DNA of 64,000 bases from an uncultured Myxococcales bacterium (GCA_964519665.1 CAZFIV010000008.1:14913-78912), one strand, 5' to 3'; positions 8,476 through 61,097 are shown, counted from the stretch's first letter. The notes: generated by a model not told the origin, from the sequence alone. A program made the numbers and translations.

Positions 8476-9429
8476 ATGTCCAATATTCTCGTAGTCGCCG
8501 AAGTCGCTGATGGTGGTCTCAAGAAGGCCACCCTCACCACCGTCACGTTCGCCCGACAAGCGTCCGTCCGTCAGGGCGGCGATGTCTTAGGCCTGGTCAT
8601 CGGGGCCGATGTGGGGGGAGCCGCCGAAGAGCTGGCAAAGTACGTCTCGACCGTCCACGTCGTCGACAACGCCGCCCTCGCAAGCCCTACCGCTGAGGCC
8701 TACGCCGCGGTCGTGAAGGCGGCGGCCGAAGCGAGCAACGCCAATCTGATCTGCATGGCCGCGACCGCTCACGGCAAAGACATCATGCCCCGAACCGCAG
8801 CCCTCCTAAACGCGGGCATGGCGTCCGATATCCTCGGCTTCGCGGAGGACGACGGCCTGCACATGCTGCGCCCGATCCAAGCCGGCAATGTCATCGCCAC
8901 GGTCGAGATCACCACTGACGTGAAGCTGGTGACCACGCGGCCCACCGAATTCGACGCTGCCCAGCCCGCCGACGCGGCCGGTGCCGTCCAGGCGCTCGCG
9001 TTCAGCCTGCCGGAGACCAAGACCGCCTTCTTGAAGTTCGATAAGGTCGCCTCCGAGCGTCCTGAGCTCAGCGACGCCGAGGTGGTCATTGCCGGCGGGC
9101 GGGGCCTCAAAGAGCCGAGCAACTTCGGTCAGGTCATCGAACCCCTCGCCGACAAGCTGAACGCGGCGATCGGCGCCACTCGAGCCGTCGTCGACGCCGG
9201 TTGGGTGCCCAACGACATGCAGGTCGGTCAGACCGGTAAGGTCGTCGCACCCAATCTGTACGTCGCCGTCGGCATCTCCGGCGCGATTCAGCATATCGCC
9301 GGCATGAAAGGGTCGAAGACCATCGTAGCCATCAACAAAGACCCGGAAGCGCCCATCTTCCAGATCTCGGACTACGGGCTGGTGGCCGACCTGTTCAAAG
9401 TGGTTCCCGAGCTGACCGAGAAGGTCTAA
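8476..9429 (+). CDS. etfA: Electron transfer flavoprotein alpha subunit
   Basis: The N-terminus MSNILVVAEVADGGLKKATLTTVTFA and the FAD-binding C-terminal half (VAVGISGAIQHIAGMKGSKTIVAINKDPEAPIF) match EtfA. The stop of etfB is 2 bp upstream, so the two are translationally coupled. Confidence 0.9.
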   Translation: MSNILVVAEVADGGLKKATLTTVTFARQASVRQGGDVLGLVIGADVGGAAEELAKYVSTVHVVDNAALASPTAEAYAAVVKAAAEASNANLICMAATAHGKDIMPRTAALLNAGMASDILGFAEDDGLHMLRPIQAGNVIATVEITTDVKLVTTRPTEFDAAQPADAAGAVQALAFSLPETKTAFLKFDKVASERPELSDAEVVIAGGRGLKEPSNFGQVIEPLADKLNAAIGATRAVVDAGWVPNDMQVGQTGKVVAPNLYVAVGISGAIQHIAGMKGSKTIVAINKDPEAPIFQISDYGLVADLFKVVPELTEKV

Positions 9430-9480
9430 CGACGACTCCGCCGCCCCCGGTTATAGATCCTCATCGCCTCGTGTCCCGGA

Positions 9481-9656
9481 CTAGAGCGCCGATTCACTTG
9501 GAGCGTGCTGTTGTCGCGCCGGAATCGGCCCGTCGGGTCGTCGCGTGAGGAGGGCGCGTATCGGGAATACGCAACCGACGAAAGCCGAAGGCGGCGCGGC
9601 GAGCAGATGGGGTGAGAACCAGCGACAATAGTGCGATCCAAGTGAATCGGCGCTAG
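9481..9656 (+). ncRNA. Candidate structured RNA: imperfect inverted-repeat arms of about 35 nt enclosing about 105 nt with internal hairpins
   Basis: Arm 9481-9518 (ctagagcgccgattcacttggagcgtgctgttgtcgc) pairs with arm 9622-9656 (gcgacaatagtgcgatccaagtgaatcggcgctag). Three of the mismatches are G:U-compatible only in a plus-strand transcript. The interior contains the perfect hairpin GCGTAT-cggga-ATACGC. No family can be assigned by eye. Confidence 0.25.
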
Positions 9657-9780
9657 GGAGCGCGACATCGTTCAGCGTCCTCTCCAATCCATCCGATCCC
9701 GGCCCCTTTCGCCGGTCGAAATCGCGAGCAGGTACAGCAGACGGGGCCGAGCTCGTCGAGCGCGCCGCGCCGTCGGGTTA

Positions 9781-9804
9781 CCGACTATCGGTGGCGATAG
9801 TCGG
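9781..9804. repeat. Perfect 9-bp inverted repeat (ccgactatc-N6-gatagtcgg) upstream of the first hybrid kinase
   Basis: The palindrome is read directly from the sequence and lies about 50 bp upstream of the 9855 ORF. It could be an operator or a hairpin. Confidence 0.4.
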
Positions 9805-9854
9805 TGGCTTAAGGTTGCCTACTACCTGCCGATCGGTGTGGGCTAGAGAGCTGC

Positions 9855-11750
9855 GTGCAGTCTTGGGGAGAAAGCCTCGTCCCGCAGGCGAGTCAAGACC
9901 TCGCCCGCCGCGCCGGGCCGGGCATCGCTCTGCTCCCCCTCGTCTTCGTAGCGATGGCCCTGCCGGCGGTTCCTCTGTGGCCGTCGATGCTGTGGTCGGT
10001 GGGCATCTCGATCGGCTTGGTCTCGGCCTTGCGAATCGCTCTGACCCGCTCGCTCTTGGCTCGACCCGCGAGCCCCGCTGGTGACCGCCGCCTTTGGGCG
10101 TTCGGAGCCCTCACTACGCTCGCCGCCATTCTGTGGTCTTTCGGAACAATAACTGTCGTCTTGAGGTACGGGTACACACCGGAGACCTACCTGATGATCA
10201 TCGGTACGGCCGGGGTGTCGGCGGGCGCCGTGACCTCCCTGAACGTCTCGCGCTGGATGGTCCTCAGCTATTGTTTGGTGTTGATGGTCCCGCTGCTCGT
10301 GGCCACCGTCTGGATGACCATCTACCACGACGGCTACATCAGCATGCCGTTCATGGGCGTCCTGTACATCGTCCTGATCTTGGTCACGGCGGAGCGCGCC
10401 AACCGCGAATACTGGAGCCGGTTGCTGGCCCGACACCAGATCGAGCTGCAACAGCGCGTCCTCGCAAAGGCTCACCGCGACGCCCGAGCGGCGGCAGTGG
10501 CCAAGACTCAGTTTCTCGCGTCGATGTCTCACGAAATTCGGACCCCGATGAATGGCGTCATGGGCGCTGCTCAGCTTCTCCGAGATACCCGGCTGTCGCC
10601 GGAGCAAGCCCAACTGGTCCGAATGCTCGAGTCGTCCGGCAGAGCGCTCCTTCACATCATCGATGACATCCTCGACTTCTCGAAGATCGAAGCTGGCCGG
10701 ATGAAGGTCGAGGATATTCCGTTCGACTTGTTCGAGCTGGTCGACGACGCGGCGATGATGATGGGCAGCCAGGCGACCACCAAGGGGCTGAGCCTCGAAG
10801 TCGACTACGCCACCGGAACTCCTCAACATGTCCGAGGGGACCCGACGCGCATCCGCCAGATCCTGCTGAATCTGCTGTCCAACGCGATCAAGTTCACCGA
10901 AGTCGGCGGCATCGAGGTCAAAGTCATGGAGTCGCTGGGGCCATCCGCGCCTCCGGCGAGCCGCGAGAGCACCGACGACCCGCCCTCCGCCGAAAGCGAA
11001 GAAGAACGTCGGCACATCGTCCGGCTCGAGGTCCATGATACCGGCCCTGGGGTTCCCCCCGAGAGTCGTAGCCATCTCTTCAAAGCGTTTAGCCAAGCCG
11101 ATGCATCCACGACCCGTCGGCACGGCGGGACCGGACTCGGCCTCGCGATCAGCAAACGGCTATGCCTGCTGATGAATGGGACCATCGGCTTTTCACCTCG
11201 ACCGGGGGGCGGGTCCGTATTCTGGTTCAGCATCGGGTTTGCGCAGGCACCGGCCCCCGTGGTCGTGCCCAAGGCCGCCGTCGAGCCGCCTACCGGGCGA
11301 CCCGGGTCGGAAGAGCGACCCCGAATCCTGATCGTCGAGGATAATCAGGTCAATCAGCTCCTCGCGGCCCGGTTCCTCGAACGGGCGGGATTCGGGTGCG
11401 AAGTCGCCTCGTCGGGGGAGCAGGCGCTGCGGGTGCTCGAGAATCACCGGTTCGACGCCGTCCTGATGGACTGCCAGATGCCAGGCATGGACGGCTTGGC
11501 GACCACTCGCGCCATCCGCCAACAAGAGGCACCGAACGGCCCTCGACTGCCGATCGTCGCCCTCACCGCCGACGCTATGGACGGCACCCGGGAACGCTGC
11601 CTGGACGCCGGCATGGACGATTTTCTGACCAAACCCGTGCAGGCCGACGAGATGGCCGAGGTGCTCCACCGCGTGCTCAGCCAGGACACCGCGGCCACTT
11701 ACCCCTCCCAAGCCGTCGAAGAAAGTGCCCGTCTCGGCCGCGCCCCTTGA
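9855..11750 (+). CDS. Hybrid sensor histidine kinase/response regulator with a polytopic (~6 TM) membrane-embedded N-terminal sensor
   Basis: About six TM helices are followed by HisKA (FLASMSHEIRTPMNGVMGAAQLL), HATPase_c (GGTGLGLAISKRL) and a C-terminal receiver (ILIVEDNQVNQLLAARFL...DAVLMDCQMPGMDG...LTKP). The true start may lie downstream of 9855. Confidence 0.85.
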   Translation: MQSWGESLVPQASQDLARRAGPGIALLPLVFVAMALPAVPLWPSMLWSVGISIGLVSALRIALTRSLLARPASPAGDRRLWAFGALTTLAAILWSFGTITVVLRYGYTPETYLMIIGTAGVSAGAVTSLNVSRWMVLSYCLVLMVPLLVATVWMTIYHDGYISMPFMGVLYIVLILVTAERANREYWSRLLARHQIELQQRVLAKAHRDARAAAVAKTQFLASMSHEIRTPMNGVMGAAQLLRDTRLSPEQAQLVRMLESSGRALLHIIDDILDFSKIEAGRMKVEDIPFDLFELVDDAAMMMGSQATTKGLSLEVDYATGTPQHVRGDPTRIRQILLNLLSNAIKFTEVGGIEVKVMESLGPSAPPASRESTDDPPSAESEEERRHIVRLEVHDTGPGVPPESRSHLFKAFSQADASTTRRHGGTGLGLAISKRLCLLMNGTIGFSPRPGGGSVFWFSIGFAQAPAPVVVPKAAVEPPTGRPGSEERPRILIVEDNQVNQLLAARFLERAGFGCEVASSGEQALRVLENHRFDAVLMDCQMPGMDGLATTRAIRQQEAPNGPRLPIVALTADAMDGTRERCLDAGMDDFLTKPVQADEMAEVLHRVLSQDTAATYPSQAVEESARLGRAP

Positions 11751-11792
11751 CCCGCGAACCTCGAGGCTCCTGAATAACGGGTACGCCCGACG

Positions 11793-13862
11793 ATGGAGCT
11801 CCACTTGTGCCCGCCCATGCATCGTCAGATGCAGCAGGATCTCGGGGTCTACGCCCAGCCCGGCCTCTACATGTTTCCGGGATTGATAGCCGGCTTCGCC
11901 GCGCTCAGCCCGGACGTGCGCGAGCTGGGGCCGACCTTCTGGGCGCCCGCGACCGTGATGACGTTGTTGGTCGTGGCCCGCCTCCCGCTCGCGCGACGAC
12001 TGGCCTCGAACCCGCCCACCGCCCACCGACACCCGATCGGATGCGCGTTCGTCTGGCTGGCCTGGATCGGAGCCGCCGGTTGGGGCCTGACCGTCGCGGT
12101 CACCCTCCACCAAGCAGGGTACAGCGAGGGCACCTATCTGCTCATCATGGCGACCGCGGGCGTCGCCGCCGGGGCGACCGCCGCCCTGTCGGTGTCGGAA
12201 CGCATCATCGTGCCCTACGTGGTCGTGCTCCAGGCCCCGCTGTGCGTAGCGACGACCATCCTCGGCCTGAGTGGACGCGGTACCCTGGTCATGCCGCTGA
12301 TGTACGTCATGTTCACCGGCTACATCGTCTTCATGGGGGCGCGTCTCAGCCGGGCCTACCAGAGCAAACTCAGCGTCATCGTCGATGCGCAAGCCGCAGT
12401 GATGGCCGCGGAGGCCAAGCGGCGTTTCCTGGCATCGGTCGCGCACGAACTAAGAACACCGATGAACGGAATCATGGGCGTTTCGGACCTCCTCAAGGAG
12501 ACCGAGGTCCGCCCCGAGCAAGTAGAATTGCTGGCGACATTCGACGAAGCGTCGAAGGCCCTGCTTCGGATTATCGACGAGGTCCTGGACTTCGCCAAGG
12601 CCGAGGATGGCCACGTCGAGATCATCAACGCTCCGTTCAGCCCTACGGACTGCGTCGAAGAGGTCGTCGGCGTCATGGAACCGGTGGCCCGGAGTAAGCA
12701 ACTCGAGCTGTCGATGTGGTTCGCCCAGGACCTACCCGAGTTAGTGATCGGCGATCAGGGCCGACTTCGACAGATCCTGATCAACTTGGCCGGTAACGCC
12801 ATCAAGTTCAGTCGGGTCGGCGGGGTTCACTTCCAGGTTCGCCGCCGAGCGGCCGGCCCCGGTCTTCGGTTGTCGGTCACCGACACCGGTCCCGGGCTCG
12901 AAGCAGGCTTTCAACCGTTCGAGCCTTTCGCCCAGGGCGCCGCCGGTGCCGAGCACGGAGGAACGGGGCTCGGCCTCGCCATTTGCGACCGATTGACGAA
13001 GCTGATGGGCGGTGCGATCGGCTTTGAACAAGCTGACCGGGGCGGTACGACGTTCTGGCTCGAGGTGCCTTTCGAAACGCACACACCGCGACGAGACCCG
13101 CCCCGCTTCGGCCGCGCGGCTTGGGTCATCGACCGTTGGGCCCCCGGCCGGTCGGCCACCGTCCAGCTTCTTCGGCGGTGCGGCGTCCACGCCGAGGCGG
13201 TGGCCCATGATGCGGGTCCGCCGCCCCCCGGCATCGACGTGTGGCTGGCCATCGACGACGCAACCCCCGACACGCAGGATGAATTGACACGACTGCGAGG
13301 CCCGGACACCCGGCTCGTCGTGATGACCACCCGCGAGCGTCACGCTGCCATGAGTGATGTCCTCGGCGGTCGGGCCGACTTCGTCACGACGCGGCCGTTG
13401 ACCCATCGCCTGGTCGAGCGAGTGTTGGACCGCCACCCATCGCCCGACGTCTCGAGGGCCGGTCCCCGGCCTCGCGTGGAGCTCGACTCGCCTCGGCGCG
13501 TCCTGATCGTCGAAGACAATCGGGTCAACCGAATGGTCGCCGAACGATTCGTGCGCGAAGCCGGCTTCGACAGCGAGGTCGCTCATTCGGGCCGGGAGGC
13601 TCTTCTTCGATTCTCGGAGACCTCGTGGGACGCGATTCTGCTCGACTGTCGGATGCCGGAGATGGACGGATGGGAAACCGCCCGGGCCATTCGCCGCCTG
13701 GAAGCCGACTCCGAGCGTCGGGTTTCGATCATTGCCATGACCGCCGACGTGGAAGACCTCACCCGCGAGCGCTGCTTCGAGGCGGGCATGGATGCATACC
13801 TCCCGAAGCCGGTCGACCCCGCGGCGTTGGTGAACCTTCTGCGGCAGGTCACAAAAGCCTGA
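11793..13862 (+). CDS. Hybrid sensor histidine kinase/response regulator, paralogue of the upstream gene
   Basis: The architecture is the same. Its TM core GTYLLIMATAGVAAGATAALSVSERIIVPYVVVLQAPLCVATTIL aligns with ETYLMIIGTAGVSAGAVTSLNVSRWMVLSYCLVLMVPLLVATVWM of the upstream gene. HisKA is FLASVAHELRTPMNGIMGVSDLL. An extra roughly 150-aa linker precedes the receiver (VLIVEDNRVNRMVAERFV...ILLDCRMPEMDG). Confidence 0.85.
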   Translation: MELHLCPPMHRQMQQDLGVYAQPGLYMFPGLIAGFAALSPDVRELGPTFWAPATVMTLLVVARLPLARRLASNPPTAHRHPIGCAFVWLAWIGAAGWGLTVAVTLHQAGYSEGTYLLIMATAGVAAGATAALSVSERIIVPYVVVLQAPLCVATTILGLSGRGTLVMPLMYVMFTGYIVFMGARLSRAYQSKLSVIVDAQAAVMAAEAKRRFLASVAHELRTPMNGIMGVSDLLKETEVRPEQVELLATFDEASKALLRIIDEVLDFAKAEDGHVEIINAPFSPTDCVEEVVGVMEPVARSKQLELSMWFAQDLPELVIGDQGRLRQILINLAGNAIKFSRVGGVHFQVRRRAAGPGLRLSVTDTGPGLEAGFQPFEPFAQGAAGAEHGGTGLGLAICDRLTKLMGGAIGFEQADRGGTTFWLEVPFETHTPRRDPPRFGRAAWVIDRWAPGRSATVQLLRRCGVHAEAVAHDAGPPPPGIDVWLAIDDATPDTQDELTRLRGPDTRLVVMTTRERHAAMSDVLGGRADFVTTRPLTHRLVERVLDRHPSPDVSRAGPRPRVELDSPRRVLIVEDNRVNRMVAERFVREAGFDSEVAHSGREALLRFSETSWDAILLDCRMPEMDGWETARAIRRLEADSERRVSIIAMTADVEDLTRERCFEAGMDAYLPKPVDPAALVNLLRQVTKA

Positions 13863-13991
13863 GGTCACGGCATGAGACGCCGCCGAATCGACCGATTCGG
13901 CTCGACGATGTACGACACTGCCGCCAACTAGATCGTGCGGAAGACGAACTTCTCTTCGAACTCGGCTTCGGGAGCAGTAAGCTAGCCCCGA

Positions 13992-20638: not shown

Positions 20639-22903
20639 CTAAGGCCGCGCGCCGACCGGCGTCGCTTTGAGCGCGGCCTTGCCGTCCTTCTTGTAGACCT
20701 GAAAACGTACCGTTCGACAATTGTACTTCTTCATGAGGCTGTCGCGGTTCTTGACCAGCTTCGCGAGGAAGCGCTCGAAGGCGAGATCGTTCGTCGGCTC
20801 CCCACAGCGGCGCCGGAGATCGATGAAGCGTTCATACACTTCCTTGAAGTGCTCGTGGTCCTCGGGATCGAGGGTGGCGGACGGCGGCGCGGCCGCCCGA
20901 GACGTCGGGTCCCTTGCCGCCGACTGCGCCAGCAGGTCGGCCGGAACGGTCGCCACGACCGTAGCGTCGGGCTTGTCGTCCTGAGAGAAGGTATGGCGAC
21001 CGGTCAGGTCTTCGCGGGCCGATTGCGCGAGCAGCTCCGATGCGACCGGGGCGACGACGGTCTCCTCCGGTCCGAAGGCGGCCCGCTCCTCCTCGTTCAC
21101 ATGAGGCAAGGCCGCCGGTTGGCGGAGGTCGAGGCTGCCCCCCCCTCGAACACCGGGCCTGGGAGCGACGGGCCCGGAAGGAGGAATGCTGACTTCCTCG
21201 ACCGGTCCGGCCGCCTCGAGACTGCCGGCCATGGGTCGCCCTCGGATGTCCGCGGCTGATCTTCGGCTGCCTGCCGAGGCATCCGCCGGTCCGCCTTCGA
21301 GTTGCGCGATCGCCTCGGCGATCGCTTCTTCCGCCCCTGGCGTCGAGGGTACACCGAGCGCGGCCATATCCGACGGGTGGGTATCAGCGGGAGGGGCGAG
21401 CGCTTCCGTCTGCTCGCTGAGTTCGAACTGCGATCGTGCGGGCGTCGTATTGACCACCGGAGTGGGCACCGACGGAGGAACCGGCGACGGCGGTAAGCTC
21501 TCGAAAGACAGGCTGTCGAGACCATCGGCGCCGAGCACTAGGTCGGGGCCCTTGTCGTCGCCGGCCGACGGCGGGGGTGGGGGCGGCGCGGCCAGAGGCG
21601 GCGCCGGCGGAGGCGACGCAGGCGGAGGAGAAATCGGTTGAGGAGGCGAACGCAGCGACGAGATCCCGGACGGCCCGCCCGGCGCCCCCGGCGGATTGGT
21701 TCCGAGAGGACCTAGATCGCCCAACGAGAGCTCCTCTTCGGGCCCGACCATCCCCGGCGGCCGGGTCGACATGCTCCCGATGTCCGCCGTGGGAACGAGG
21801 GCGCGGTTCGGGATCTTCAGCACGGTCATGTTGACCAGCTTCACGATGCGGCGAAAGGGACGGCTCACCTCGTTCTCGGGCATCTGGAGGTCGCCCTTGC
21901 CCATATTGAGGTCAGACAAGTGCTCGGCGATCTTGTGAATCGGCACCACGAAACCTCGGAAGTTCAGAATCCCCACCAACAGCGCGACCAGAAACGCCGC
22001 CACCATCGCCCCCAACACGCCGCTCTGACGCTCGGCGATCTCGTCGAGCCCGGCCGTCGCATCGACCGAAACCACCCAGCTGAATTGGGGCGGCGCGCCC
22101 TCCACATGGGTCGAATAGGACACCAGCGCATGCCCGGTGGCTCGATGGTCGACGAAAAGCGGCAGTAGCGGAATGGTGTCGTCGGTGAGAGGTTCTTCGC
22201 TCTGCCCCGAGAAGTTGACGACCTCTTTCTTGGACGCCTCGACGACGGTCTTTGCGAGGGCGTCGGGCGCCGAACTCACGAGGACGCGCTTGTCGGAGGA
22301 TAGCGTCACGTGGCCTCCGAGGCTCCCGCCCCAGGCGGTCACGGCCTCTTTGTCGATCGGCCGCCCGAGCACGATCGCGCCGAGGATGTCGCCGTCGTCA
22401 TCGACCAGGGGTGCTCCCACGGCCACGACGAACTCGGGACGGGCGCTCCACAGTCCGTCCAGAGCGTAACCGAGCTGCGTTGAAACGAAGATCGGGTGGC
22501 CGTCGATCGACGGAGGGTTCTCGTCGATGTTCGATCGACCGGCCGACAAGAGAACGCGGCCCCGCCGATCGACCAGCCAGGCGAACCCGCGTTTTGGCTT
22601 CGCGGCTTCGAGCAACTTCAGGAGCCCCGTCAGGGCTCGTTCGCCCCGGGAGCCGGAGCGGCCGAGGTCGGCGACCTTGTTGCCGATGACCGCTTCGTGC
22701 GCGGTCGCCATCACTTCCGTGAGCGAGTCGTAGGCGTCTTTCTCGACCATCCGGAGCAGACGGGGCACCGCCTGCTGCACGTAATCTCGACTTCTCTTTT
22801 GCGCCTGCTCGACCACCGAGGTCGTGTCGATGTACAGCGCAACCCCGAACGGTGTGAGGACCGTCAGGACCAACAAGGCCGCGTGTCGAGTCCAAAAGCT
22901 CAT
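20639..22903 (-). CDS. Membrane receptor: TM, dCache-like periplasmic domain, TM, HAMP-like segment, a roughly 250-aa Pro-rich linker and an unrecognised C-terminal domain
   Basis: TM1 (HAALLVLTVLTPFGVALYI) is followed by a roughly 250-aa periplasmic Cache-like region, then TM2 (VLGAMVAAFLVALLVGIL) and a HAMP-like helix (IHKIAEHLSDLNMGKGDL). A PPPASPPPAPPLAAPPPPPP-rich low-complexity stretch follows, and the protein ends in a compact domain ...HEHFKEVYERFIDLRRRCGEPTNDLAFERFLAKLVKNRDSLMKKYNCRTVRFQVYKKDGKAALKATPV. Confidence 0.7.
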   Translation of the reverse strand: MSFWTRHAALLVLTVLTPFGVALYIDTTSVVEQAQKRSRDYVQQAVPRLLRMVEKDAYDSLTEVMATAHEAVIGNKVADLGRSGSRGERALTGLLKLLEAAKPKRGFAWLVDRRGRVLLSAGRSNIDENPPSIDGHPIFVSTQLGYALDGLWSARPEFVVAVGAPLVDDDGDILGAIVLGRPIDKEAVTAWGGSLGGHVTLSSDKRVLVSSAPDALAKTVVEASKKEVVNFSGQSEEPLTDDTIPLLPLFVDHRATGHALVSYSTHVEGAPPQFSWVVSVDATAGLDEIAERQSGVLGAMVAAFLVALLVGILNFRGFVVPIHKIAEHLSDLNMGKGDLQMPENEVSRPFRRIVKLVNMTVLKIPNRALVPTADIGSMSTRPPGMVGPEEELSLGDLGPLGTNPPGAPGGPSGISSLRSPPQPISPPPASPPPAPPLAAPPPPPPSAGDDKGPDLVLGADGLDSLSFESLPPSPVPPSVPTPVVNTTPARSQFELSEQTEALAPPADTHPSDMAALGVPSTPGAEEAIAEAIAQLEGGPADASAGSRRSAADIRGRPMAGSLEAAGPVEEVSIPPSGPVAPRPGVRGGGSLDLRQPAALPHVNEEERAAFGPEETVVAPVASELLAQSAREDLTGRHTFSQDDKPDATVVATVPADLLAQSAARDPTSRAAAPPSATLDPEDHEHFKEVYERFIDLRRRCGEPTNDLAFERFLAKLVKNRDSLMKKYNCRTVRFQVYKKDGKAALKATPVGARP

Positions 22904-22909
22904 TGGTCG

Positions 22910-23647
22910 TTACTCACCCTGGGGGATAACGGTCACCCCCACATCCAGTTGACCGAGGTTGAGGTCGTTATTGGCGACCGTCACCTTTTGCCGCAAAACG
23001 ATGCCGTCGCGTCCGATGACGCGAAGCTCGTAGTCACCCTGCGGAGCATCGAACGTGAAGCGCCCCCTGTCATCGGGAACGGCGGCCACCCCCACCTCTC
23101 CGACGTAGACCAGCGCCTGCATATGCGGCCATTGCTCGACCCGAATGACTCTCAGCGGCTGACCGGGGCTGCACACGTAGGTCTTCTGAGCGCCCGGCTC
23201 GACCGTGGCGAACGCTTCGCCATCGACCGTCACCGTGACCGCGTCGCGATCGGCATTCACGAAGCTGACCTGGGCGTCCGATGCACACGATGCGATGTTG
23301 GGGGAGAACTTCAGCCCCTCGATGGTGATCGACTGGTGCGCGGTCGGAGCCGGAATCGGAAGCGAGTTGCCGTCTTCAACGGCCAGGAACAGGGCGACAG
23401 CCGGCTTGCTGAGGGTCGCCGATGGAGGTAGCGTGACGATCCGCTTGCGAGCGAAGCCGATCCGGTTACCGACCCGCGAGGTTTCGGCGACGGATATCGT
23501 TCCCTTGACCCGAGCCGCCCAAGCCACTCCCATGGCGGCGGTCATCAGCACCGTTGCCAACACGAGCCCGCCGGCACAAACACCGCCCCAGCGAGAATTG
23601 CGGCGGGAAACGAAACGACCCAAAAGGCGAAAAAGCGTACGCATCAC
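22910..23647 (-). CDS. Hypothetical membrane-anchored or secreted beta-rich protein (Ig/CarboxypepD_reg-like?)
   Basis: It has an N-terminal TM/signal segment (GGVCAGGLVLATVLMTAAMGVAWA) and a beta-strand-rich C-terminus (GDYELRVIGRDGIVLRQKVTV). It sits 6 bp upstream of, and in the same orientation as, the receptor gene. Confidence 0.55.
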   Translation of the reverse strand: MMRTLFRLLGRFVSRRNSRWGGVCAGGLVLATVLMTAAMGVAWAARVKGTISVAETSRVGNRIGFARKRIVTLPPSATLSKPAVALFLAVEDGNSLPIPAPTAHQSITIEGLKFSPNIASCASDAQVSFVNADRDAVTVTVDGEAFATVEPGAQKTYVCSPGQPLRVIRVEQWPHMQALVYVGEVGVAAVPDDRGRFTFDAPQGDYELRVIGRDGIVLRQKVTVANNDLNLGQLDVGVTVIPQGE

Positions 23648-23681
23648 AAGGCCTTCGGCTTGATCGCAGGTTGATAATCAC

Positions 23682-25115
23682 GTGTCAAACAACCGTCCCG
23701 CAGCCCATGCATTTCCGACGCAAATCGCGCTACTCAGTGCGATTTGGCTGGTGGGTCTTCTCTGGTGCCTGAGCCTCGATGATCCTCGCCTGCGCTACGG
23801 ATCATTTCTGGGCGGCATGGCCGTCGCCAATCTGGGTTGGCTCGGCTTGATTCGCGCCGTCAATCATCCCCGCATCCTGGGCGCCTCCGACGATATCCGG
23901 GCCGCACGTACGACGCGGATCTTCGGGGCCCTGATCGTGCTCGGGCTCGGGGCAAGGTTCGCTGCCTGGTGGTTACCACCCGCATTCTCGGAAGACGTCT
24001 TTCGCTACGTGTACGAAGGACGCGTCGTTTGGTTCTATGGCTGGGCATTTCCATTCACGCACCCGCCTGCCGATGCGCCCTCGTTGGGGGTCGCGCCCGA
24101 GCTGCTCGACCACGCGTGGCTGCGCATCAACCATCCCGAGCTGTCCACGATCTATCCCCCACTGGCCCAGATCACATTCGCGGTCGCCGGTGGATTGGGC
24201 GAGCTCGCGGGAGGTGGGCATCTCGGCTTCCTCAAAGCACTGTTGGTGGGCGCGGATCTGCTGACTTGGCTCCTGGTCACGCTCAGTCTGCGGGCCGTGG
24301 GCCGGTCGGCGCTCGAATCCGTGGGGTGGGGTCTCAATCCGCTGGTCGTCCTCGAAGTGGCACGCGAGGGCCACGCCGATAGCCTGAGCGCACTCGGACT
24401 CGGGCTTGGCCTGTACGGGTTCGTAGTGGCCCGGCCCCGTCTCGGCTACCTCGGCTTCGCCGCCGCAGCGATCGCCAAGCTCAACGGCCTCATCGTGTTG
24501 CCGGCGGCGGCGCGCACGACGCGGCGAGGATTGGGCCTCGCGATCGCGGTGTGCACCCTGGTGACCCTTCCCTATCTGTTCGCTGGCGGCACCGCCGGCG
24601 ATGGATTGAGCGCGTACGCCTCGAAGTGGCGAGCCGGTGATGGTGCATTCTCGGTCCTGCTATCCGGAGCCGAGCTCATCCTCGGCGGCGATTGGGCCCG
24701 TTTGCCGGGCTGGAGCTCGACGGGCGAAATAACATTGACTCGACATCAGCTCGCCCGTTGGATGGTCGCGGGGCTGTTCGGAGGTTGGGCGCTGCTGGTC
24801 ATCGTTCGGCCCGCGCCGATGAGCGCGGTCCCCGGACGAGCGGGGATGCTTCTTCTCGGCGTGCTGCTCCTGTCGCCGACCCTTCATCCTTGGTACGTTC
24901 TGTGGCTCCTGCCGTTCGTGGCCGCCGCCCCCAACTTCGAAGGCCGACGAGCGGCGGTGGCGCTCGCGGTACTCGCCCCCGCCCTTCATCATCCCGGGTG
25001 GATCGAGCTGACCACCGGGCAATGGAGCGACCTCGGATGGGTTCGAGGCCTGGTCCACCTACCGGTCTGGGTGATGCTGAGCGCTGACCTGGCGATACCC
25101 CGCCGAACCCGGTAG
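23682..25115 (+). CDS. Polytopic integral membrane protein, GT-C-like glycosyltransferase fold (DUF2029/PMT_2-like) candidate
   Basis: At least 9 predicted TM helices are present. A conserved extracytoplasmic loop (FRYVYEGRVVWFYGWAFPFTHPP) resembles the lipid-linked sugar transferases of the GT-C superfamily. This is an inference. Confidence 0.55.
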   Translation: MSNNRPAAHAFPTQIALLSAIWLVGLLWCLSLDDPRLRYGSFLGGMAVANLGWLGLIRAVNHPRILGASDDIRAARTTRIFGALIVLGLGARFAAWWLPPAFSEDVFRYVYEGRVVWFYGWAFPFTHPPADAPSLGVAPELLDHAWLRINHPELSTIYPPLAQITFAVAGGLGELAGGGHLGFLKALLVGADLLTWLLVTLSLRAVGRSALESVGWGLNPLVVLEVAREGHADSLSALGLGLGLYGFVVARPRLGYLGFAAAAIAKLNGLIVLPAAARTTRRGLGLAIAVCTLVTLPYLFAGGTAGDGLSAYASKWRAGDGAFSVLLSGAELILGGDWARLPGWSSTGEITLTRHQLARWMVAGLFGGWALLVIVRPAPMSAVPGRAGMLLLGVLLLSPTLHPWYVLWLLPFVAAAPNFEGRRAAVALAVLAPALHHPGWIELTTGQWSDLGWVRGLVHLPVWVMLSADLAIPRRTR

Positions 25116-25129
25116 CCTGGTCACCGACC

Positions 25130-25951
25130 ATGCCTCTGCAAGACGGTCTGCTCATCGCCGTGAAGGACGGCGTCGTCGAGCTCACGGCAAACCTCGTCGA
25201 ACCCCACGGGGACGACCCGGCCAGCTTCACGGAGGCGCTTCAGCAACGCCTCGCAGAACACCAACACCAAGCGATGACCGATGACACGATCATGGGCGAC
25301 GAACTCGCACTGGCGAGCTGCATCGTGTGTCGGGACCCCATCCCCGATGCGTTGAAAGATCCGCTGCTCGGTCTCGGGTTTGCACCGGAAGATACCCCCC
25401 CAGGGGGACAACAACCGCGCTCGCTCTTCGGTCGGCTCGGCAGCAGCAAGCAACGGTCCCGCCTCGAGAAGTGGACGCTCCGATATCATCGAAGCGATGA
25501 ACTCGATCCGAGACTAGCCGCCTTCGAAGCCGCGTTGGTCGACGAAGTGCCGGCGGGCGCGCTTCCCGAGGTCGCTCTCGAAGGCGCGCACCGAGTCATC
25601 GACGGGGCGCGAACCTACCTGCAACTGCTGCTCGCTCCCGGGCTCGCCGGTCTCGAGGCCCTGGAACGTCAGCTCGATCAACTTCGGCGAGCCAAGAGCG
25701 GACGGTGGATTCTTCATGCGCGGGCCGTGCGGGGACTCGCCGGATTCACCGTTCAAAGCATCGCCGCCGAAGCGCCCGACACCCAATGGGGCCCCGACGA
25801 AGATGACAGTCCGCTGTGGGTTCGAGCGCCCCACGGGATCACGGTCGCGACCGACCCCGAGTATCGAACCGTCGAATTCATTCGCCGAGGCCTGCGAGCG
25901 TCCCTCTCCGACTACGTTCGCGACGTCCTTCGACAGTCGAAGAATCATTGA
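25130..25951 (+). CDS. Hypothetical protein
   Basis: The 273-aa ORF has no recognisable motifs. GC3 is consistent with coding, and it is immediately followed by the next plus-strand gene. Confidence 0.5.
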   Translation: MPLQDGLLIAVKDGVVELTANLVEPHGDDPASFTEALQQRLAEHQHQAMTDDTIMGDELALASCIVCRDPIPDALKDPLLGLGFAPEDTPPGGQQPRSLFGRLGSSKQRSRLEKWTLRYHRSDELDPRLAAFEAALVDEVPAGALPEVALEGAHRVIDGARTYLQLLLAPGLAGLEALERQLDQLRRAKSGRWILHARAVRGLAGFTVQSIAAEAPDTQWGPDEDDSPLWVRAPHGITVATDPEYRTVEFIRRGLRASLSDYVRDVLRQSKNH

Positions 25952-25970
25952 CCGAGGCCCTTCGAACGGC

Positions 25971-27293
25971 ATGCTATGGTCGACAGGGATGACCGCACTC
26001 CGTTCTGCCTTTGCTTCGGCCATCGGCGTGGCTCTGCTCACCTCGGCCACCGCAGCGTCGGCTGCACCCGACCCGGTGCCCGACGAGCAGCGCGGGTCGA
26101 CGGCGACCGAACCCGTTGCGGTGTTGGTGCTTCCGTACCAACCCATTCTGCGGTCGGTGCCTCAGGCGAAGGTGAAGCAAGCGACCGAGTACTTGCTCAA
26201 GGAGCTGAAAGCGACCGAAGGGCTCAGGGTGCTTCAAGGCGGCGTCGCCACGAGCCAGGGCGCCCCCGCCTCGCTCGAAGCGGCGGTAAAGCATAAGAAC
26301 CAGGCGCTCGAGGCGGAAACCGCCAAGAAGATCAAGCAGGCGATCCACCACCACCGAGAGGCGATCGCCGCTTTCGAAAAGAACGCGTCGGCGCTGCAGG
26401 ACGCCAGCGTCTATATCCGTACCCATCACGAGCTGGCGCGGGCCCTGATGTGGTCCGGCGCCGACGACGATGCGAAGGCGACGATCGACGTCGCGGCTCG
26501 ACTCGATCCGAGTTTCGAGCTCAAGCCGGACCAGTACTCCCGCCTGTACCGCGCTTGGTTTTTCGCAGCGGCCCAAAAGGTCGTTCGGGAGCGACCGGGC
26601 GCACTGATGGTGAAGAGCGCGCTGCCGGGAGCAACGGTCCAACTCGATGGCCGGCCGATGGATGTCGCGCCCGTCCTCATCGACCGAGTGGTTCCCGGTA
26701 AGCACCTCGTCACCGCCTCCGTCGATGGAGTGCCTCCCTTTGGCATCGTCGTTACGGTCGAGAGCCGGAAGCGATCCGAACTCGGGCTCGACTTCGCCGG
26801 GGTATTGGGGGGGCTAGAAGTGGGCGACGTGACCGATGCGGTCGCTCGCAACGAGCTGCCTCGGGAAGCCGTGGCCCAGGCGGCACAGGCCGGAGAAAAC
26901 GCCAGGGCCGAGTACGTCGTCGCGGGTGGTCTTGCCAATGACCGAGTGGGCAACGACCTCAACGTGCACACGTTTGTTGTCCGGGTCGCCGACAGGCGGG
27001 TCATGAGCCTGAACCCGGTCGATTTCGACAGCGAGCTCCTGACCGCCGAGTCGGACGTGATCCGGGTCGTCCGCCAGGTCGCAGCGGCGATCGAGGAGTT
27101 CAGCGACGCCTCGACGAGCATCGCGGTGATCGAAAAGCGAACCAGCGGATTTGCCCGCACCACGCTCAATCAGGTCAACGGCGCACCCGAACCACCCTCT
27201 CGTCGAGCCGCGGCTCGTCGTTCGACCGGCCCCCGTAAGGTCTTCAAAGCGCTCGAAGGCGGGACGATCCGCATTCAAGACGAAGAAGAGTGA
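25971..27293 (+). CDS. Secreted hypothetical protein with a PEGA-like beta-domain
   Basis: The ATG at 25971 gives a clean signal peptide (MTALRSAFASAIGVALLTSATAASAAP). The segment GATVQLDGRPMDVAPVLIDRVVPGKHLVTASVDG looks like a PEGA/Ig-like beta domain. Confidence 0.55.
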   Translation: MLWSTGMTALRSAFASAIGVALLTSATAASAAPDPVPDEQRGSTATEPVAVLVLPYQPILRSVPQAKVKQATEYLLKELKATEGLRVLQGGVATSQGAPASLEAAVKHKNQALEAETAKKIKQAIHHHREAIAAFEKNASALQDASVYIRTHHELARALMWSGADDDAKATIDVAARLDPSFELKPDQYSRLYRAWFFAAAQKVVRERPGALMVKSALPGATVQLDGRPMDVAPVLIDRVVPGKHLVTASVDGVPPFGIVVTVESRKRSELGLDFAGVLGGLEVGDVTDAVARNELPREAVAQAAQAGENARAEYVVAGGLANDRVGNDLNVHTFVVRVADRRVMSLNPVDFDSELLTAESDVIRVVRQVAAAIEEFSDASTSIAVIEKRTSGFARTTLNQVNGAPEPPSRRAAARRSTGPRKVFKALEGGTIRIQDEEE

Positions 27294-34007: not shown

Positions 34008-35555
34008 ATGGTTGCGCGGCCCGATCGACCCATCGACGTCAGTGATCTCGACCTATCCGAGCTTTCCAAGGGCCCCTCGATTCGTCAGGATGCGCAAGCT
34101 CCGCTGCACCGCCTGCTGGGTCAGCCAGTGGGTCTCGAAGGCCTCTCCCGACTGTTTCAGCCGTCTTTCCCTGGCGTCCGGACCTTCGCCATCGGAGTCC
34201 GCGCAACGCCGGATCAAGCCGTCGAGCTCACGCTGGTCGGCATCGCCCGCGACGGCGTACCGGTATGGACGGGAACCCGCACGTTCAGTCGAGGGCCCAG
34301 CGGCGGCCTCGAAATGGACATCGGGTTCGATGAGGTCGATCCCCGCTTTCGCTCCCGCAACATCATCGTCGATGCGGTGACCCGGCAAGTTCAGCTATTG
34401 CGTCGACTCGACGGCAGTCCGCCGTGTCGGCTGACGATCGATGCCGACGGAACGGGCCGCTACGTGTGCGCGCTGCACGGCTTCGTCTTCGCCGATGAGA
34501 CCGAAGAAGGACCGTCGCCGCGCTCACGATGGGCAATGGCGCCGGCCGGCGACCGAGCGCGGATCATCGAAACGGGGCAGACGATCATCAAGGCTCACGC
34601 CGACCGACTGGGACTCGGCAAGCTCGCGTTGGAGGACGCGATCGAGCAGCTGCGAGCGGCTCGATCGGGCTGGGACCTGGCTCGGCTCAGCTTTTCGGAT
34701 TCGTCTTTTCCGCCCGACGCCGACTCCGATGAGGCCCTCGGCATCGGTCCCCTCGGTCGCGCGCTGCTGCTCGACGACTCGACGCCGGGCTGGCGCGGCG
34801 CGCTGTACCCCGACGAGCGGTTCTGGGAGCTGAACCAACGCGGCGACGCTTATCGTCGTCATAAAACCGCGCGTTCTCGAGCCAGGCTTCGACTCGAGGT
34901 CGAAATGGCGCGACAGGGGCTTTCGAGCCCCCATCGGGCCGAGCGCATTCGCAGTCTGGAGACGCTCGGTCGCGTCGGGGACCCATCGATTGTTCCAGAG
35001 CTGAACGCGTTCGCATCCGGCAAAGAACGGCGGATGGCCGCGCTGGCTCGGCGGATGCTGGACCTGATCCATGGCAACGGCCTTGCCGAACGGTTGTTGG
35101 AGTACGCAAACGATACGCGACATCCTACGCGGCAGAGGGCGTTGGCCTATCGCGTCTTGGCTGAACATTTCCCGAAGCATCTCGCCGAAAAAACCCCCAT
35201 GCTTCGTGTTGATCCGGACGCGCGCATCCAGCGGGCCGCCGTTCCTTTGGTCGCGCGGCAGCCGCATGACCCGGGCCCAGCCCTGGCCGCGATGCTGGCC
35301 GCAAACCCCCTCGACAGCGCCGACCGACAACGGCCGGGGCTCGCCGCACTGCGGCTCGACATCATCGAGTGGCTCACGATTTTGGCCGACCCACGGACGT
35401 TGCTTCCGCTCAGTCTCGCATTTCAAAATCAGCCACCGCCCCCGCCCGCAGAGGCGCTTGCTCTGTCTCGGGCCATCGTCACGTTCAACGATCCTCGCGC
35501 CAAGATGGTATTGCGCGCCGGCAGCTTTCCCCTGACCCGCCCCGACGTGCCTTGA
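34008..35555 (+). CDS. Hypothetical protein with C-terminal HEAT/PBS-lyase-like repeats, directly upstream of the MglA paralogue
   Basis: Repeated helical hairpins are present (ERIRSLETLGRVGDPSIVPELNAF; RALAYRVLAEHFP; DARIQRAAVPLVARQP). The roughly 200-aa N-terminal portion is mixed alpha/beta and unassigned. Confidence 0.6.
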   Translation: MVARPDRPIDVSDLDLSELSKGPSIRQDAQAPLHRLLGQPVGLEGLSRLFQPSFPGVRTFAIGVRATPDQAVELTLVGIARDGVPVWTGTRTFSRGPSGGLEMDIGFDEVDPRFRSRNIIVDAVTRQVQLLRRLDGSPPCRLTIDADGTGRYVCALHGFVFADETEEGPSPRSRWAMAPAGDRARIIETGQTIIKAHADRLGLGKLALEDAIEQLRAARSGWDLARLSFSDSSFPPDADSDEALGIGPLGRALLLDDSTPGWRGALYPDERFWELNQRGDAYRRHKTARSRARLRLEVEMARQGLSSPHRAERIRSLETLGRVGDPSIVPELNAFASGKERRMAALARRMLDLIHGNGLAERLLEYANDTRHPTRQRALAYRVLAEHFPKHLAEKTPMLRVDPDARIQRAAVPLVARQPHDPGPALAAMLAANPLDSADRQRPGLAALRLDIIEWLTILADPRTLLPLSLAFQNQPPPPPAEALALSRAIVTFNDPRAKMVLRAGSFPLTRPDVP

Positions 35556-42458: not shown

Positions 42459-44540
42459 TTGGCCACTCGGGCGCCGGACACTTTCGTCAAGACCCTCGTC
42501 CTGGCCCTCTGGGTCGGGACCGTCGCTTTGGGATCATTCTCTCAGGCGCACGCCCAAGCCGCGCCTGACCCCGCACCCGACGGCGCATCGGAGGACAAGC
42601 GTCCGCGAAGCCGAGATCCTCGGCGGGTAGCGATCGACGCCCGGCTGCAAACCATCCGGCCGAGCTCGACCCAACTCTCGATGGCTCCGGGAGACACCGT
42701 TTTCCTCGAATCATCCTTGCGCGTACCGGCGGGCCGGCTTCGAGGTCCCAAGTCGGATTACGAGGCCGTCGTCAGCGGTATCATCGCTCCCGAGGGGGTG
42801 GTCGTGCACCGCCGGGCCCATCGGTTCAGCCTCCGGACCCGAGGCACTGACGTGGAGGTACGGTTCGTCTACGCGGTCCACGTCGAACCGGGCACGCTGG
42901 TCGGGGGGCCGGTCCAGCTCGACCTGACCGTCGTCGAGCGGCGCGGTCTCGCCAACACCATGGCCAAAAAGGCGATCAAACATCGAATCCGATTGGACCC
43001 GGTTCGGCCCGCACCCGAAGACCTGGCCGCCGATTTCTACGGGTACCGGTTCTATAAGCGACGGGCCGAGCGACGTCGCAAAGCCCTGCTCCGGGCGGGT
43101 TTGCGCCTGCCGATGCCCGATGAGAAACGCCTCCCGCCCCTCGACCGCGCGTCGGCGAAGGTCGCGGCCCAGGTTTATCAATTCGCTCGAGAGCGCCGGT
43201 TGCTGTGGGTCGCGCACCGGCATTTGGTCGCCGCGCGCCAGCACCCCGACCCGGAAGTTCAGCGACTTGCGCAGGCTTTCCTGCAGAACCTCGATCGTCC
43301 GCGCCAGGCCTGGGATGGGGTCCCGTCGATCCCGCTGGTCGCCCGACCACCTGACCGGGCCGAAGGGGCGGACGCTTTCACGCCCTCGGCGAGGGCCGAA
43401 GGAGCGGACGCTTTCACGCCCTCGGCGAGGGCCGAAGCAGCCGGCGAGCCCCCGTCGTCAGCCGACCCGAGTCGACCGAAAAGGCTCGAACCGAGCCTCG
43501 AGTACGAGCTGGGCACCGAGCGAACACCGCCTCCAGCAGAGCCGCCTCGCCGTCCGATCGAGCCGGAGCCACCGGTCGAAGTCGAGCCACCGAAGAACCC
43601 CGAGCCGACCGACGAGGAAGAGAACCTTGACGAGGTCATCTACGAGGACGATCCGTTCTCGGATCAGCCCCGCCGACGCCTGACGCCGATTCCTAGCTAT
43701 TACCGTGGATTGCTGCTCGACGACGGCAACATCGGTCACGGAGGTGGCATTCGGGCCTTGTTCGCATCGATCGAAACGAGAGAGTCGGCCGACACCGTCT
43801 CTCTATTCTTCTTCGCGCAAGCGGCGGTGACTCGCGATCTGGGCATCGAGCTGACCGTCCCCACTCAGTATCTCGACATCACGAGCTTCCCGGGGGATCG
43901 CAATCCGCCCGCGCAGTACGAATTTGGCAACCCGCTGCTGGCCGTGAAGTACCGGTTTCATCTTCCTAAAGTGCAGGGGCGGCGCCCCGCCCTCACCGTG
44001 AGGGCGCGGTGGGGCGTGCCCGTTGCGCCTTTGCACGGGATCCCGGCCACCGAGCTGAACGTCGAGGAGTTCACCCGCGAGGTGAACTTTGCGGACACCT
44101 ACGCTTTTTTCCTGGAGAACCACTCCCTCGGGCTCGGGGCCAACTTCGCCTGGCGGTGGAAGTGGCTGTACACCGGCGTCCAGCTCTACGGGGATGCGTT
44201 CATCCCCGTAGGCGAATCCAGCCAGAACACCGCGTTCACCTCGGTGAGCTACGGTGCGTCGGTCGGTGTACTGCCGTTCGGTGACTGGGTGGGCTTCTTC
44301 GCCGAAGGACGGGGCACCAGCCTGTTCATCGGCGGCGGCCGTAACGAGTTCTTTACGTATCTAGGCGCGCGAGGCCGCGTGTTCGACCGCTTCGAACCCG
44401 CGGTCTGGATAGCGGTGCCGGTCGGCTCCGTACAAGACGTGAGCCCCATTCAGTTCGGCTTCGAGCTGCGCTTCGCGTACGACATCGACGGCGTCGAGGA
44501 ACCCGACCGAATCCGGCGCGAACAGGATATTCTGGAATAG
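42459..44540 (+). CDS. Secreted hypothetical protein with a Pro/Glu-rich repeat region and a beta-rich C-terminal domain
   Basis: It has a signal peptide (LVLALWVGTVALGSFSQAHA). An internal 12-aa tandem repeat AEGADAFTPSAR sits next to PEPPVEVEPPKNPEP. The C-terminal roughly 250 aa show OMP-like strand periodicity. Confidence 0.6.
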   Translation: MATRAPDTFVKTLVLALWVGTVALGSFSQAHAQAAPDPAPDGASEDKRPRSRDPRRVAIDARLQTIRPSSTQLSMAPGDTVFLESSLRVPAGRLRGPKSDYEAVVSGIIAPEGVVVHRRAHRFSLRTRGTDVEVRFVYAVHVEPGTLVGGPVQLDLTVVERRGLANTMAKKAIKHRIRLDPVRPAPEDLAADFYGYRFYKRRAERRRKALLRAGLRLPMPDEKRLPPLDRASAKVAAQVYQFARERRLLWVAHRHLVAARQHPDPEVQRLAQAFLQNLDRPRQAWDGVPSIPLVARPPDRAEGADAFTPSARAEGADAFTPSARAEAAGEPPSSADPSRPKRLEPSLEYELGTERTPPPAEPPRRPIEPEPPVEVEPPKNPEPTDEEENLDEVIYEDDPFSDQPRRRLTPIPSYYRGLLLDDGNIGHGGGIRALFASIETRESADTVSLFFFAQAAVTRDLGIELTVPTQYLDITSFPGDRNPPAQYEFGNPLLAVKYRFHLPKVQGRRPALTVRARWGVPVAPLHGIPATELNVEEFTREVNFADTYAFFLENHSLGLGANFAWRWKWLYTGVQLYGDAFIPVGESSQNTAFTSVSYGASVGVLPFGDWVGFFAEGRGTSLFIGGGRNEFFTYLGARGRVFDRFEPAVWIAVPVGSVQDVSPIQFGFELRFAYDIDGVEEPDRIRREQDILE
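43358..43440. repeat. Tandem 36/37-bp direct repeat x ~2.3 (ggccgaagg(g/a)gcggacgctttcacgccctcggcgag)
   Basis: Read directly from the sequence. It is in frame and encodes the AEGADAFTPSAR repeats. Confidence 0.85.
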
Positions 44541-44542
44541 CC

Positions 44543-60518: not shown

Positions 60519-61094
60519 ATGATTGCCTTCGAGATGTTAGTGGCGGAACCAGCGATGCTCGCGCTGGTCGTCGCGGGGGTTGGATTCGCGCTGGTCGTCG
60601 TACTGCTGGCCGCCCGGGCCCAACAGCGTCTCGACGAGCAGAGTCAGTTGCTGCTCGGCCTCGCCTTGACGGGCCGAGCTGACGAAGCACGAATTCAGGC
60701 CCGGCAAAACCCCCGCGACCTCGGTCCCATGTTGTCGGCCTTGGGCGGTCGACTGACTCCACCGTCCCCCCGGCCCGTGGCGCGGGACCTCGTCGCGGTG
60801 ATCGGCGTTTCGACCTTCCCGCTCCTCGCCGTAGTTGGAGGGTGGCAAGCCTCACTGTCACCGAGCGCTGGCGCCCGCGTGACGGGGATAGCCGCGAGTT
60901 TCGCCGCTTTCGCAGTCCTGCTGCCCACCGCGGTGGCGGCGACGACGCTCGTGATCAGCCTCGGACGCCGAGCCGCCCGCGTCGTTCGCGGGGCCGCGGT
61001 TCAGCTCTTGGCGAGAGGCGTCAAGGCGGCCGTCGACGCCGAGCTGCTCGACAACCTTCGACGGAGATCCTCGCGCGACCCGCGAGGCGAGTGA
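60519..61094 (+). CDS. Hypothetical membrane protein
   Basis: The 191-aa product has 3-4 TM helices. Its stop is 3 bp before the next ORF. Confidence 0.5.
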   Translation: MIAFEMLVAEPAMLALVVAGVGFALVVVLLAARAQQRLDEQSQLLLGLALTGRADEARIQARQNPRDLGPMLSALGGRLTPPSPRPVARDLVAVIGVSTFPLLAVVGGWQASLSPSAGARVTGIAASFAAFAVLLPTAVAATTLVISLGRRAARVVRGAAVQLLARGVKAAVDAELLDNLRRRSSRDPRGE

Positions 61095-61097
61095 GCC

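Follow-up and report, generated by a model that had tools for sequence, protein, structure and literature searches.

In the window, that is the whole 64-kb stretch of DNA analysed here, a 176-nt intergenic element (CTAGAGCGCCGATTCACTTGGAGCGTGCTGTTGTCGC ... GCGACAATAGTGCGATCCAAGTGAATCGGCGCTAG; 9481-9656) separates etfA from a hybrid histidine kinase gene, beyond which follow a second kinase gene and an RNase E/G gene (Table 1). The best-named relatives of the encoded EtfA come from Myxococcota or 'Deltaproteobacteria' MAGs. The element has no coding capacity and no match to a protein family; the ORFs that cross it are artefacts of the antisense strand, and the protein collection does not contain them. 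The 64-kb window encodes no transposase, reverse transcriptase or HUH enzyme. A scan of 9300-9950 returned neither a sigma-70-like promoter nor a U-tract terminator, and directly 3′ of the element's hairpin the sequence reads GGGAGCGCGAC, rather than the U-tract that follows the GC-rich hairpin of an intrinsic terminator.

Table 1. Features of the element and its two neighbouring genes in the window
Feature	Position	Strand	Evidence or remark
etfA, upstream gene	8476..9429	+	stop 52 nt before the element
left CTAG	9481..9484	.	sequence; the diverged homologue on contig L025 opens with the same CTAG, and the flanks diverge directly outside it
left arm, terminal inverted repeat (33 nt)	9485..9517	+	base-by-base pairing with 9622-9654
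inner part, rod continued	9518..9621	+	G-rich on the plus strand (44 G against 27 C); taken alone, beats shuffles on the plus strand only (z -2.3; minus strand, z -0.2)
conserved core/apical domain: closing stem and two hairpins	9532..9606	+	alignments with L025 and with the L026 tandem array; covariance-model matches at model positions 65-121
perfect apical hairpin, GCGTAT-CGGGA-ATACGC	9556..9572	+	L025 counterpart GCATAT-CCGGC-ATATGC
right arm, terminal inverted repeat	9622..9654	+	holds the three G:U partners and the A of the G.A mismatch
right CTAG (TA 9654-9655)	9653..9656	.	overlaps the last two paired bases, because the tip of the window copy is 2 nt shorter here than at the left end
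hybrid histidine kinase, downstream gene	9855..11750	+	start 198 nt after the element

In the minimum-free-energy fold of the plus strand, the two arms join in 32 pairs, with a single 1x1 G.A mismatch (9503/9636) and three wobble pairs between them (U9506:G9633, G9507:U9632 and G9510:U9629). At the arm tip the two sides are offset by 2 nt, left CTAGAGCGCC facing right GGCGC--TAG or, in a shorter view, AGAGCGCC facing GGCGC--T. The initial annotation, which had described the arms as complementary save for a 2-nt bulge, one G:A mismatch and three wobbles, is exact in this fold, the bulge being the tip offset. The inner 104 nt prolong the rod, which finishes in a three-way apical domain that carries the perfect GCGTAT-CGGGA-ATACGC hairpin. 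This hairpin, already noticed among the inner ones, was located together with a small one, GCC-GAA-GGC, at 9584-9592.

Taken as RNA, 9472-9667 reaches a minimum free energy of -114.8 kcal/mol on the plus strand (z -9.2; none of 200 shuffles equalled it) and -91.1 kcal/mol on the minus strand (z -5.6). As ssDNA, the same segment reaches -61.9 kcal/mol on the plus and -54.3 kcal/mol on the minus strand, and this fold is significant as well (z -7.4). The gap between the strands thus amounts to 23.7 kcal/mol with RNA parameters versus 7.6 kcal/mol with DNA parameters, a roughly threefold difference. These z-scores rule out a chance palindrome. The arms form the strongest inverted repeat within the 64-kb window, and a 19-mer taken from them occurs in the window at the two arms only.

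The element's size had been placed in the range of 6S RNA and other small RNAs. When we ran cmscan against Rfam 15, the whole window gave no match at the gathering score and 9350-9900 gave none at E<=10, 6S RNA (RF00013) included, which rules out 6S and every other curated Rfam family. The element shares with 6S RNA a comparable length and an overall rod shape; unlike 6S RNA, it is without a large central bubble, is multi-locus and mobile, and has no conserved locus. A retron ncRNA (msr-msd) was also rejected: long outer repeats are present, but the window holds no RT.

Strand-specific pairing in a diverged homologue

A HMMER search with the 80-aa antisense ORF of the element led to two spurious ORFs, P0247 and P0246. 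Their contigs are long and come from ENA sample ERZ26696514, in which the relatives with 80% EtfA identity are found as well. P0247 is the antisense translation of the element and P0246 that of a core array; both are labelled 'hypothetical proteins'. Five further proteins from a profile search (P0241-P0245) are genuine repeat proteins unrelated to the element.

On a related metagenomic Myxococcota contig, L025:5003-5193(-) is a full-length, diverged homologue of the element, placed between two unrelated, co-oriented genes and non-syntenic with the window. It opens with CTAGGGTGCCGGTTCC, compared with CTAGAGCGCCGATTCAC in the window copy, and closes with ...GCGCTAAGG; its ends, beginning CTAGGGTGCCGG, are paired too. 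The upstream gene takes its TAG stop from the CTAG of the homologue, which ends in CTAA on the other side. The core is ~85% identical to window 9532-9606, and the apical hairpin differs by a compensatory change of G-C to A-U (pair 81:93), reading GCATAT/ATATGC versus GCGTAT/ATACGC in the window. The homologue folds as the same rod, at -95.3 kcal/mol (z -3.5) in the sense direction versus -71.8 kcal/mol (z -1.25) in the antisense direction. Its tips match those of the window copy poorly as DNA (7/12), yet they pair as RNA.

The core alone recurs on the minus strand of L026:5197-5558 (= L030:10197-10558) as a tandem array of 5-6 units of 54 nt (GCGCGTATCCGGCCTGCGCAACCGACGAAAGCCGAAGCCGCCCCGGCGCGCA), in which the apical hairpin is partly degenerate, being partly broken in three identical units. 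The array, which follows 60 nt of unusually AT-rich sequence, is situated upstream of a methyltransferase gene, in the intergenic region between divergent genes.

RNAalifold, applied to the window and L025 elements, yields a 53-pair sense-strand rod with a consensus energy of -77.15 kcal/mol; the antisense alignment yields 44 pairs and -41.9 kcal/mol. The plus-strand G:U asymmetry that had been noticed in the window copy is real and recurs in the diverged L025 element, the opposite strand losing 9 pairs and ~35 kcal/mol. Fifteen of the 53 consensus pairs carry double changes and 6 carry one-sided changes, all through G:U, with none broken; these counts are drawn from two sequences, and the structure itself derives from the same two. 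As a control, sliding the partners by 1-3 columns left 0-3 double changes and 30-44% pairing. Six of the 15 double changes belong to helices 3 and 4 rather than to the arms and are therefore not explained by the matching of both transposon ends to one transposase. At opposed positions, G:U outnumbers A.C by 7:1 in the window copy and by 6:1 in the L025 copy, or by 12 to 2 when a shared pair is counted once (rough binomial p ~0.01). The remaining mismatches in both are G.A and G.G.

These patterns fit a fold that would have been selected in a single-stranded, probably RNA, form of the plus strand. The larger asymmetry with RNA than with DNA parameters favours RNA, though not decisively, over ssDNA as the selected form. 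In the initial annotation the asymmetry had been taken as the mark of a transcribed RNA helix and as speaking against a MITE. Selection on the plus-strand fold is supported; the exclusion of a MITE is invalid, because MITE-like bacterial repeats with an RNA-level fold are known. Among them are bcr1, with compensatory changes (PMC3184786), and, according to the parts of PMC3049150 and PMC2649163 that treat them, Correia elements with RNase III, ERIC with RNase E, BOX and RUP.

Copies, insertion junctions and synteny

When we searched the six-frame translation of the element against the protein collection, a single protein, P0121, was returned. P0121 is a 489-aa GH16 beta-glucanase, the last 59 aa of which are 96% identical to one minus-strand frame of the element, so that the element lies antisense to the gene reading into it. 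Eight GH16 homologues (71-79% identity) end 2-3 residues past ...DYVRVY[A/S], where P0121 reads on into the element, which places the insertion 2-3 codons ahead of the gene's usual stop. Its two junctions, VYSR|APIH and NRR|SRQ*, contain a duplicated Ser-Arg, and removal of the element leaves ...VRVYSRQ*, a normal C-terminal length. Read back from the codons, the junctions would fit the signature of a target duplication (TA or CTAG) within TCTAGR. Likewise, the Ser-Arg-Ala-Pro junction would fit an undeleted tip, TCTAGAGCGCC, and the tail appears consistent with ...TCTAG|flank at the left end.

The P0121 copy differs from the window copy by two amino acids: one reflects GCAGATGG>GCAGACGG within the core, the other CCAAGTG>CCGAGTG within the right arm, a change that adds one U:G pair on the plus strand. 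This copy is known from its protein tail alone, which leaves its ends inferred and its origin in the same genome not demonstrable. No near-identical Logan version of P0121's GH16 gene exists. The 90% clusters of P0121, P0246 and P0247 contain one member each.

Three full-length members are thus at hand, each in a different, unrelated context: between etfA and the histidine kinase gene in the window, in the tail of the GH16 gene encoding P0121, and between a TonB_C gene and an unknown gene on L025. Near-identical copies scattered in the genome had been named in advance as pointing to a MITE or REP. This was borne out in part, in that one second copy with a junction duplication came to light, in the P0121 tail; within the 64-kb window the density is 1 copy.

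Wider searches met chance matches. An 18-mer common to both arms gave 10 single chance matches in 185,579 species genomes, all in unrelated taxa and with no second arm, the window itself going unmatched; the same 18-mer gave 8 single chance matches in JGI metagenomes, and a metagenome scan for the paired-arm pattern gave none. A match in Myxococcaceae (L003), read by eye, consists of a single arm only. Two matches of the core motif in viral contigs both fall inside coding sequence and were dismissed as chance, and blastn of the element against plasmids and phages returned nothing. Our covariance model (R1), run on the window and on ~90 kb of related contigs, identified no further full-length member. 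The copy number may therefore be low and the family narrow, though the DNA collections searched did not reach the source genome.

Logan contigs of SRR6462991 (SRR6462991_11264 and _31241) match the window at 100% identity, breaking off at 9507 and resuming at 9625. These breaks lie 27 and 32 nt inside the element's two ends, within both arms, as we would expect of a k=31 graph at a repeat. The argument is only suggestive, because Logan contigs also break in unique sequence: another contig ends within coding sequence that is unique, near window position 35,640. The same organism is present at lower contiguity in a second run, SRR6462992.

In three relatives with 80-81% EtfA identity (L021, L022 and L023/L024), the order parA-etfB-etfA-(0 or 1 kinase)-rng-bamA is kept, and the spacers after etfA (66, 333 and 241 nt, respectively) hold nothing similar to the element. 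Conservation in related genomes, on which the reading as an RNA gene had been made to depend, thus failed at this position in all three. In the window, two tandem hybrid histidine kinase genes (HisKA-HATPase_c-Response_reg) occupy 9855-13862 between etfA and the RNase E/G gene. Judged from the none or one kinase in these relatives, this two-kinase segment is apparently a lineage-specific insertion beside the MITE.

Nature of the element and competing explanations

The element is probably a MITE of ~170-176 bp, from an undescribed family in uncultured Myxococcota, which would be mobilised in trans and which likely forms the 3′ hairpin of the etfBA mRNA. We read it as mobile DNA with an additional RNA-type fold and not as a resident sRNA gene; the family is new, but the kind of element is ordinary. 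We assign it to the MITEs because it is small (176 nt) and non-coding, has 33-nt terminal repeats (32 pairs) and TA/CTAG ends, shows a junction duplication in P0121, occurs at non-homologous loci in unrelated contexts, and is absent from the syntenic position in relatives.

The flanks, C-TA-[element]-TA-G in the window and C-TA-...-TA-A on L025, suit a TA duplication and a 4-bp IS5-type duplication alike. CTAG is palindromic and could itself belong to the terminal repeat, the target duplication being read here without a DNA-level empty site. For IS630, the duplicated target is TA, with a preference for TA inside CTAG (Tenzen & Ohtsubo 1991, as cited in PMC2170065), and the IS5-type MITEPsy1 duplicates CTAG or YTAA (PMC3189936). 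On an IS630-type model the TA at 9482-9483 would be the duplicated target, and on an IS5-type model the whole left CTAG. No transposase with matching ends (GAGCGCCGATTCAC..., GAGCGCCGATTCACTTGG-like) was found, and none is encoded in the window or in the related loci examined.

We envisage a transposase encoded elsewhere that would recognise the arms and paste the element into CTAG/YTAR sites, duplicating either TA, as IS630/Tc1-mariner elements do, or a tetranucleotide, as some IS5-type MITEs do. Such sites are often TAG stop codons in a ~65% GC genome, which would explain why two copies lie at gene ends. In the window, the conserved strand of the element coincides with the coding strand of etfBA, and no terminator is predicted between etfA and the element; the etfBA mRNA therefore most likely ends in the transcribed element. 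The transcript would then carry a hairpin of about -107 kcal/mol, which, by analogy with REP, ERIC, Correia and bcr1, could block 3′ exonucleases and/or attenuate read-through into the kinase genes. It might also be a substrate of double-strand-specific RNases.

The MITE assignment accounts for an odd intergenic structure without a new RNA gene and documents a MITE family in uncultured Myxococcota; a full-text literature search for reports of MITEs or repeat elements in myxobacteria yielded nothing relevant. It also adds a clean case in bacteria of a MITE that keeps its fold over the whole length on one strand, as seen in 15 compensatory pairs when two members are compared. Elements of this kind are able to rewire operon boundaries, and here one sits between etfBA and two kinase genes that are absent there in the relatives. 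In practical terms, the element breaks short-read assemblies, gives rise to false gene extensions (P0121) and creates spurious ORFs (P0246 and P0247). The extension in P0121, an annotation artefact of the element, spans 59 aa at the C-terminus.

Several known repeats resemble the element in part. The bcr1 repeat of the Bacillus cereus group, as treated by Delihas 2011 after Klevan et al. 2007 (PMC3184786), is likewise non-coding, has ~155-175 bp and short direct repeats, is distributed non-syntenically among related genomes, and keeps a double-stranded RNA-level structure through compensatory changes. It differs in its unrelated sequence and phylum, in having direct repeats of 5 bp, and in a cruciform-like fold made up of two stem-loops; our element has an apparent target of TA or CTAG, folds as one rod that ends in a three-way apical domain, and is known here from sequence alone.

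Correia elements (CREE/nemis) of Neisseria are MITEs of ~100-155 bp with 26-bp inverted repeats and a conserved core, as is the case here, and they duplicate a TA target. In the passages of PMC2649163 and PMC3049150 devoted to them, they are co-transcribed with neighbouring genes into a hairpin that is bound or cleaved by RNase III. By contrast with our element, they have no sequence similarity to it, occur in hundreds of copies per genome (apparently few here), and carry IHF sites and end promoters, neither of which was detected here.

RUP of pneumococcus, for which IS630-Spn1 is the proposed mobiliser, is also a small MITE with a tightly folded RNA and pairing terminal repeats, and its ends resemble an IS630-family element (PMC3049150). 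It is shorter (107 bp), AT-rich and has a known candidate transposase, whereas here the genome has ~65% GC and no cognate IS was identified. MITEPsy1 of Pseudomonas syringae, an IS5-type element, compares with the CTAG/CTAG and CTAG/CTAA flanks seen here; unlike our element, it has 100 bp and 18-nt repeats starting GGAAGG, with no conserved rod reported.

REP/BIME and REPIN sequences are GC-rich extragenic palindromes as well, single or tandem, and stabilise upstream mRNA (PMC3184786); the core array of L026 resembles a REP/BIME cluster. REPs are 20-40 nt long and REPINs about 70-110 nt, with conserved arms, a variable loop, a dependence on RAYT and no target duplication. In our element, by contrast, conservation is highest in the core, and TA/CTAG appears to be duplicated at the ends.

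Cut-and-paste DDE transposition, as supposed for a MITE, explains neither the palindromic inner part nor the G:U pairs on one strand only, and the fold therefore needs a second explanation. One extension, which we hold to be unlikely, is that the rod RNA (~180 nt, with its conserved three-way apical domain) is itself selected, either for self-propagation or as a domesticated, portable 3′-UTR or insulator device. A wider class is hinted at because related contigs hold other ~190-nt, rod-like, strand-asymmetric elements in addition to the apical-domain tandem array.

An equally improbable explanation is that the palindrome is mobilised as ssDNA, in the manner of REPIN/RAYT or IS200/IS605-type elements, the one-strand G:T pairs then marking a hairpin for an HUH tyrosine transposase. 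The whole element is indeed a hairpin with pairing conserved on one strand only, its ssDNA folding is significant too, the core is clustered in tandem in L026 as REP units are in BIMEs, and the related contig L030 holds several further ~190-nt intergenic hairpin elements. However, the P0121 junction duplication and the TA/CTAG at both ends suit a DDE transposase, and to our knowledge IS200/605-type elements make no target duplication. Moreover, there is no conserved GTAG-type 5′ tetranucleotide, no RAYT/TnpA gene occurs in the window or in the related loci examined, the density of 1 per 64 kb is low compared with typical REPINs, and the strand asymmetry is much weaker with DNA parameters.

That the element is a resident sRNA or cis-regulatory RNA gene of the etfBA-kinase locus, encoded on the plus strand with a function unrelated to mobility, we regard as very unlikely. 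The strong plus-strand fold, the G:U asymmetry and the covariation with L025 would all be expected of such a gene, and the three intergenic rod elements whose neighbours are known (in the window, on L025 and at L030:18983-19177) are all co-oriented with both flanking genes. Yet the element has no Rfam match at E<=10 and no promoter-like or terminator-like site; it is missing from the syntenic position in relatives, its homologue on L025 stands in an unrelated context, its ends are CTAG, and a GH16 gene is fused to a near-identical copy that runs in the opposite direction.

Least probable of all is a fold that is real but not selected as RNA: a mutation bias linked to transcription, with C>T and A>G on the non-template strand, would have produced the G:U excess on a MITE palindrome, while template switching between the arms kept the symmetry. 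In its favour, every mismatched transition in the arms reads as G:U on the strand coding for the flanking genes, and both neighbours of each of the three oriented elements are encoded on the element's own strand. Against it, the sense strand is purine-rich and T-poor (T 26/176), unlike the outcome of C>T drift, 6 of the 15 double changes lie outside the arms, and the other mismatches, G.A and G.G, are tolerated in RNA helices.

Further structures in related contigs and around the locus

Contig L030 contains additional intergenic inverted repeats. The one at L030:18983-19177 (+) is unrelated to the element in sequence, ~195 nt long with 32-nt arms, and has the orientation of both flanking genes. 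On the plus strand it folds as a rod (-98.4 kcal/mol, z -2.1), which it does not on the minus strand (z -0.5), and G:U exceeds A.C by 10:3. Its presence suggests that such genomes carry several families of rod-like elements. At L030:2068-2262, 29-nt arms stand 137 nt apart, mostly in the spacer between two plus-strand genes, and the right arm extends to the start codon of the downstream gene.

A much shorter structure, a 56-nt near-perfect hairpin (TAGTGTCCCGGTCGGGAA...TTCCCGACCGGGACACTAG) at L030:17930-17985, begins ~5 nt past the stop of a GSDH gene and is bounded by TAG/CTAG. Its loop has GACCCGTACTT in common with the right arm of L030:18983-19177, and GTGTCCCGG also occurs just left of the window element, at 9471-9479. 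This hairpin may be a short derivative or a related target context.

Elsewhere in the window, 11 sizeable ORFs with coding-like GC3 (e.g. 754, 693, 525, 515 and 491 aa) have no Pfam match at E<=1e-5; they lie in 20639-27293, 34008-35555, 42459-45940 and 60519-62573. Closer to the element, a perfect 11-bp hairpin, ACCGACTATCG-GTGG-CGATAGTCGGT, occupies 9780-9805, 50 nt upstream of the kinase start codon, and may be an operator or attenuator. Directly upstream of the RNase E/G start, two of the relatives share a ~30-nt motif, CTTTTCGCCTGCTAGGCTTC..GCCGGATGGA (L021:6990-7020 and L023:5490-5521), with a weak counterpart, AAGCTAGCCCCGAATGGAG, in the window at about 13969-13987; the motif may be a 5′-UTR autoregulatory site of rng/rne.
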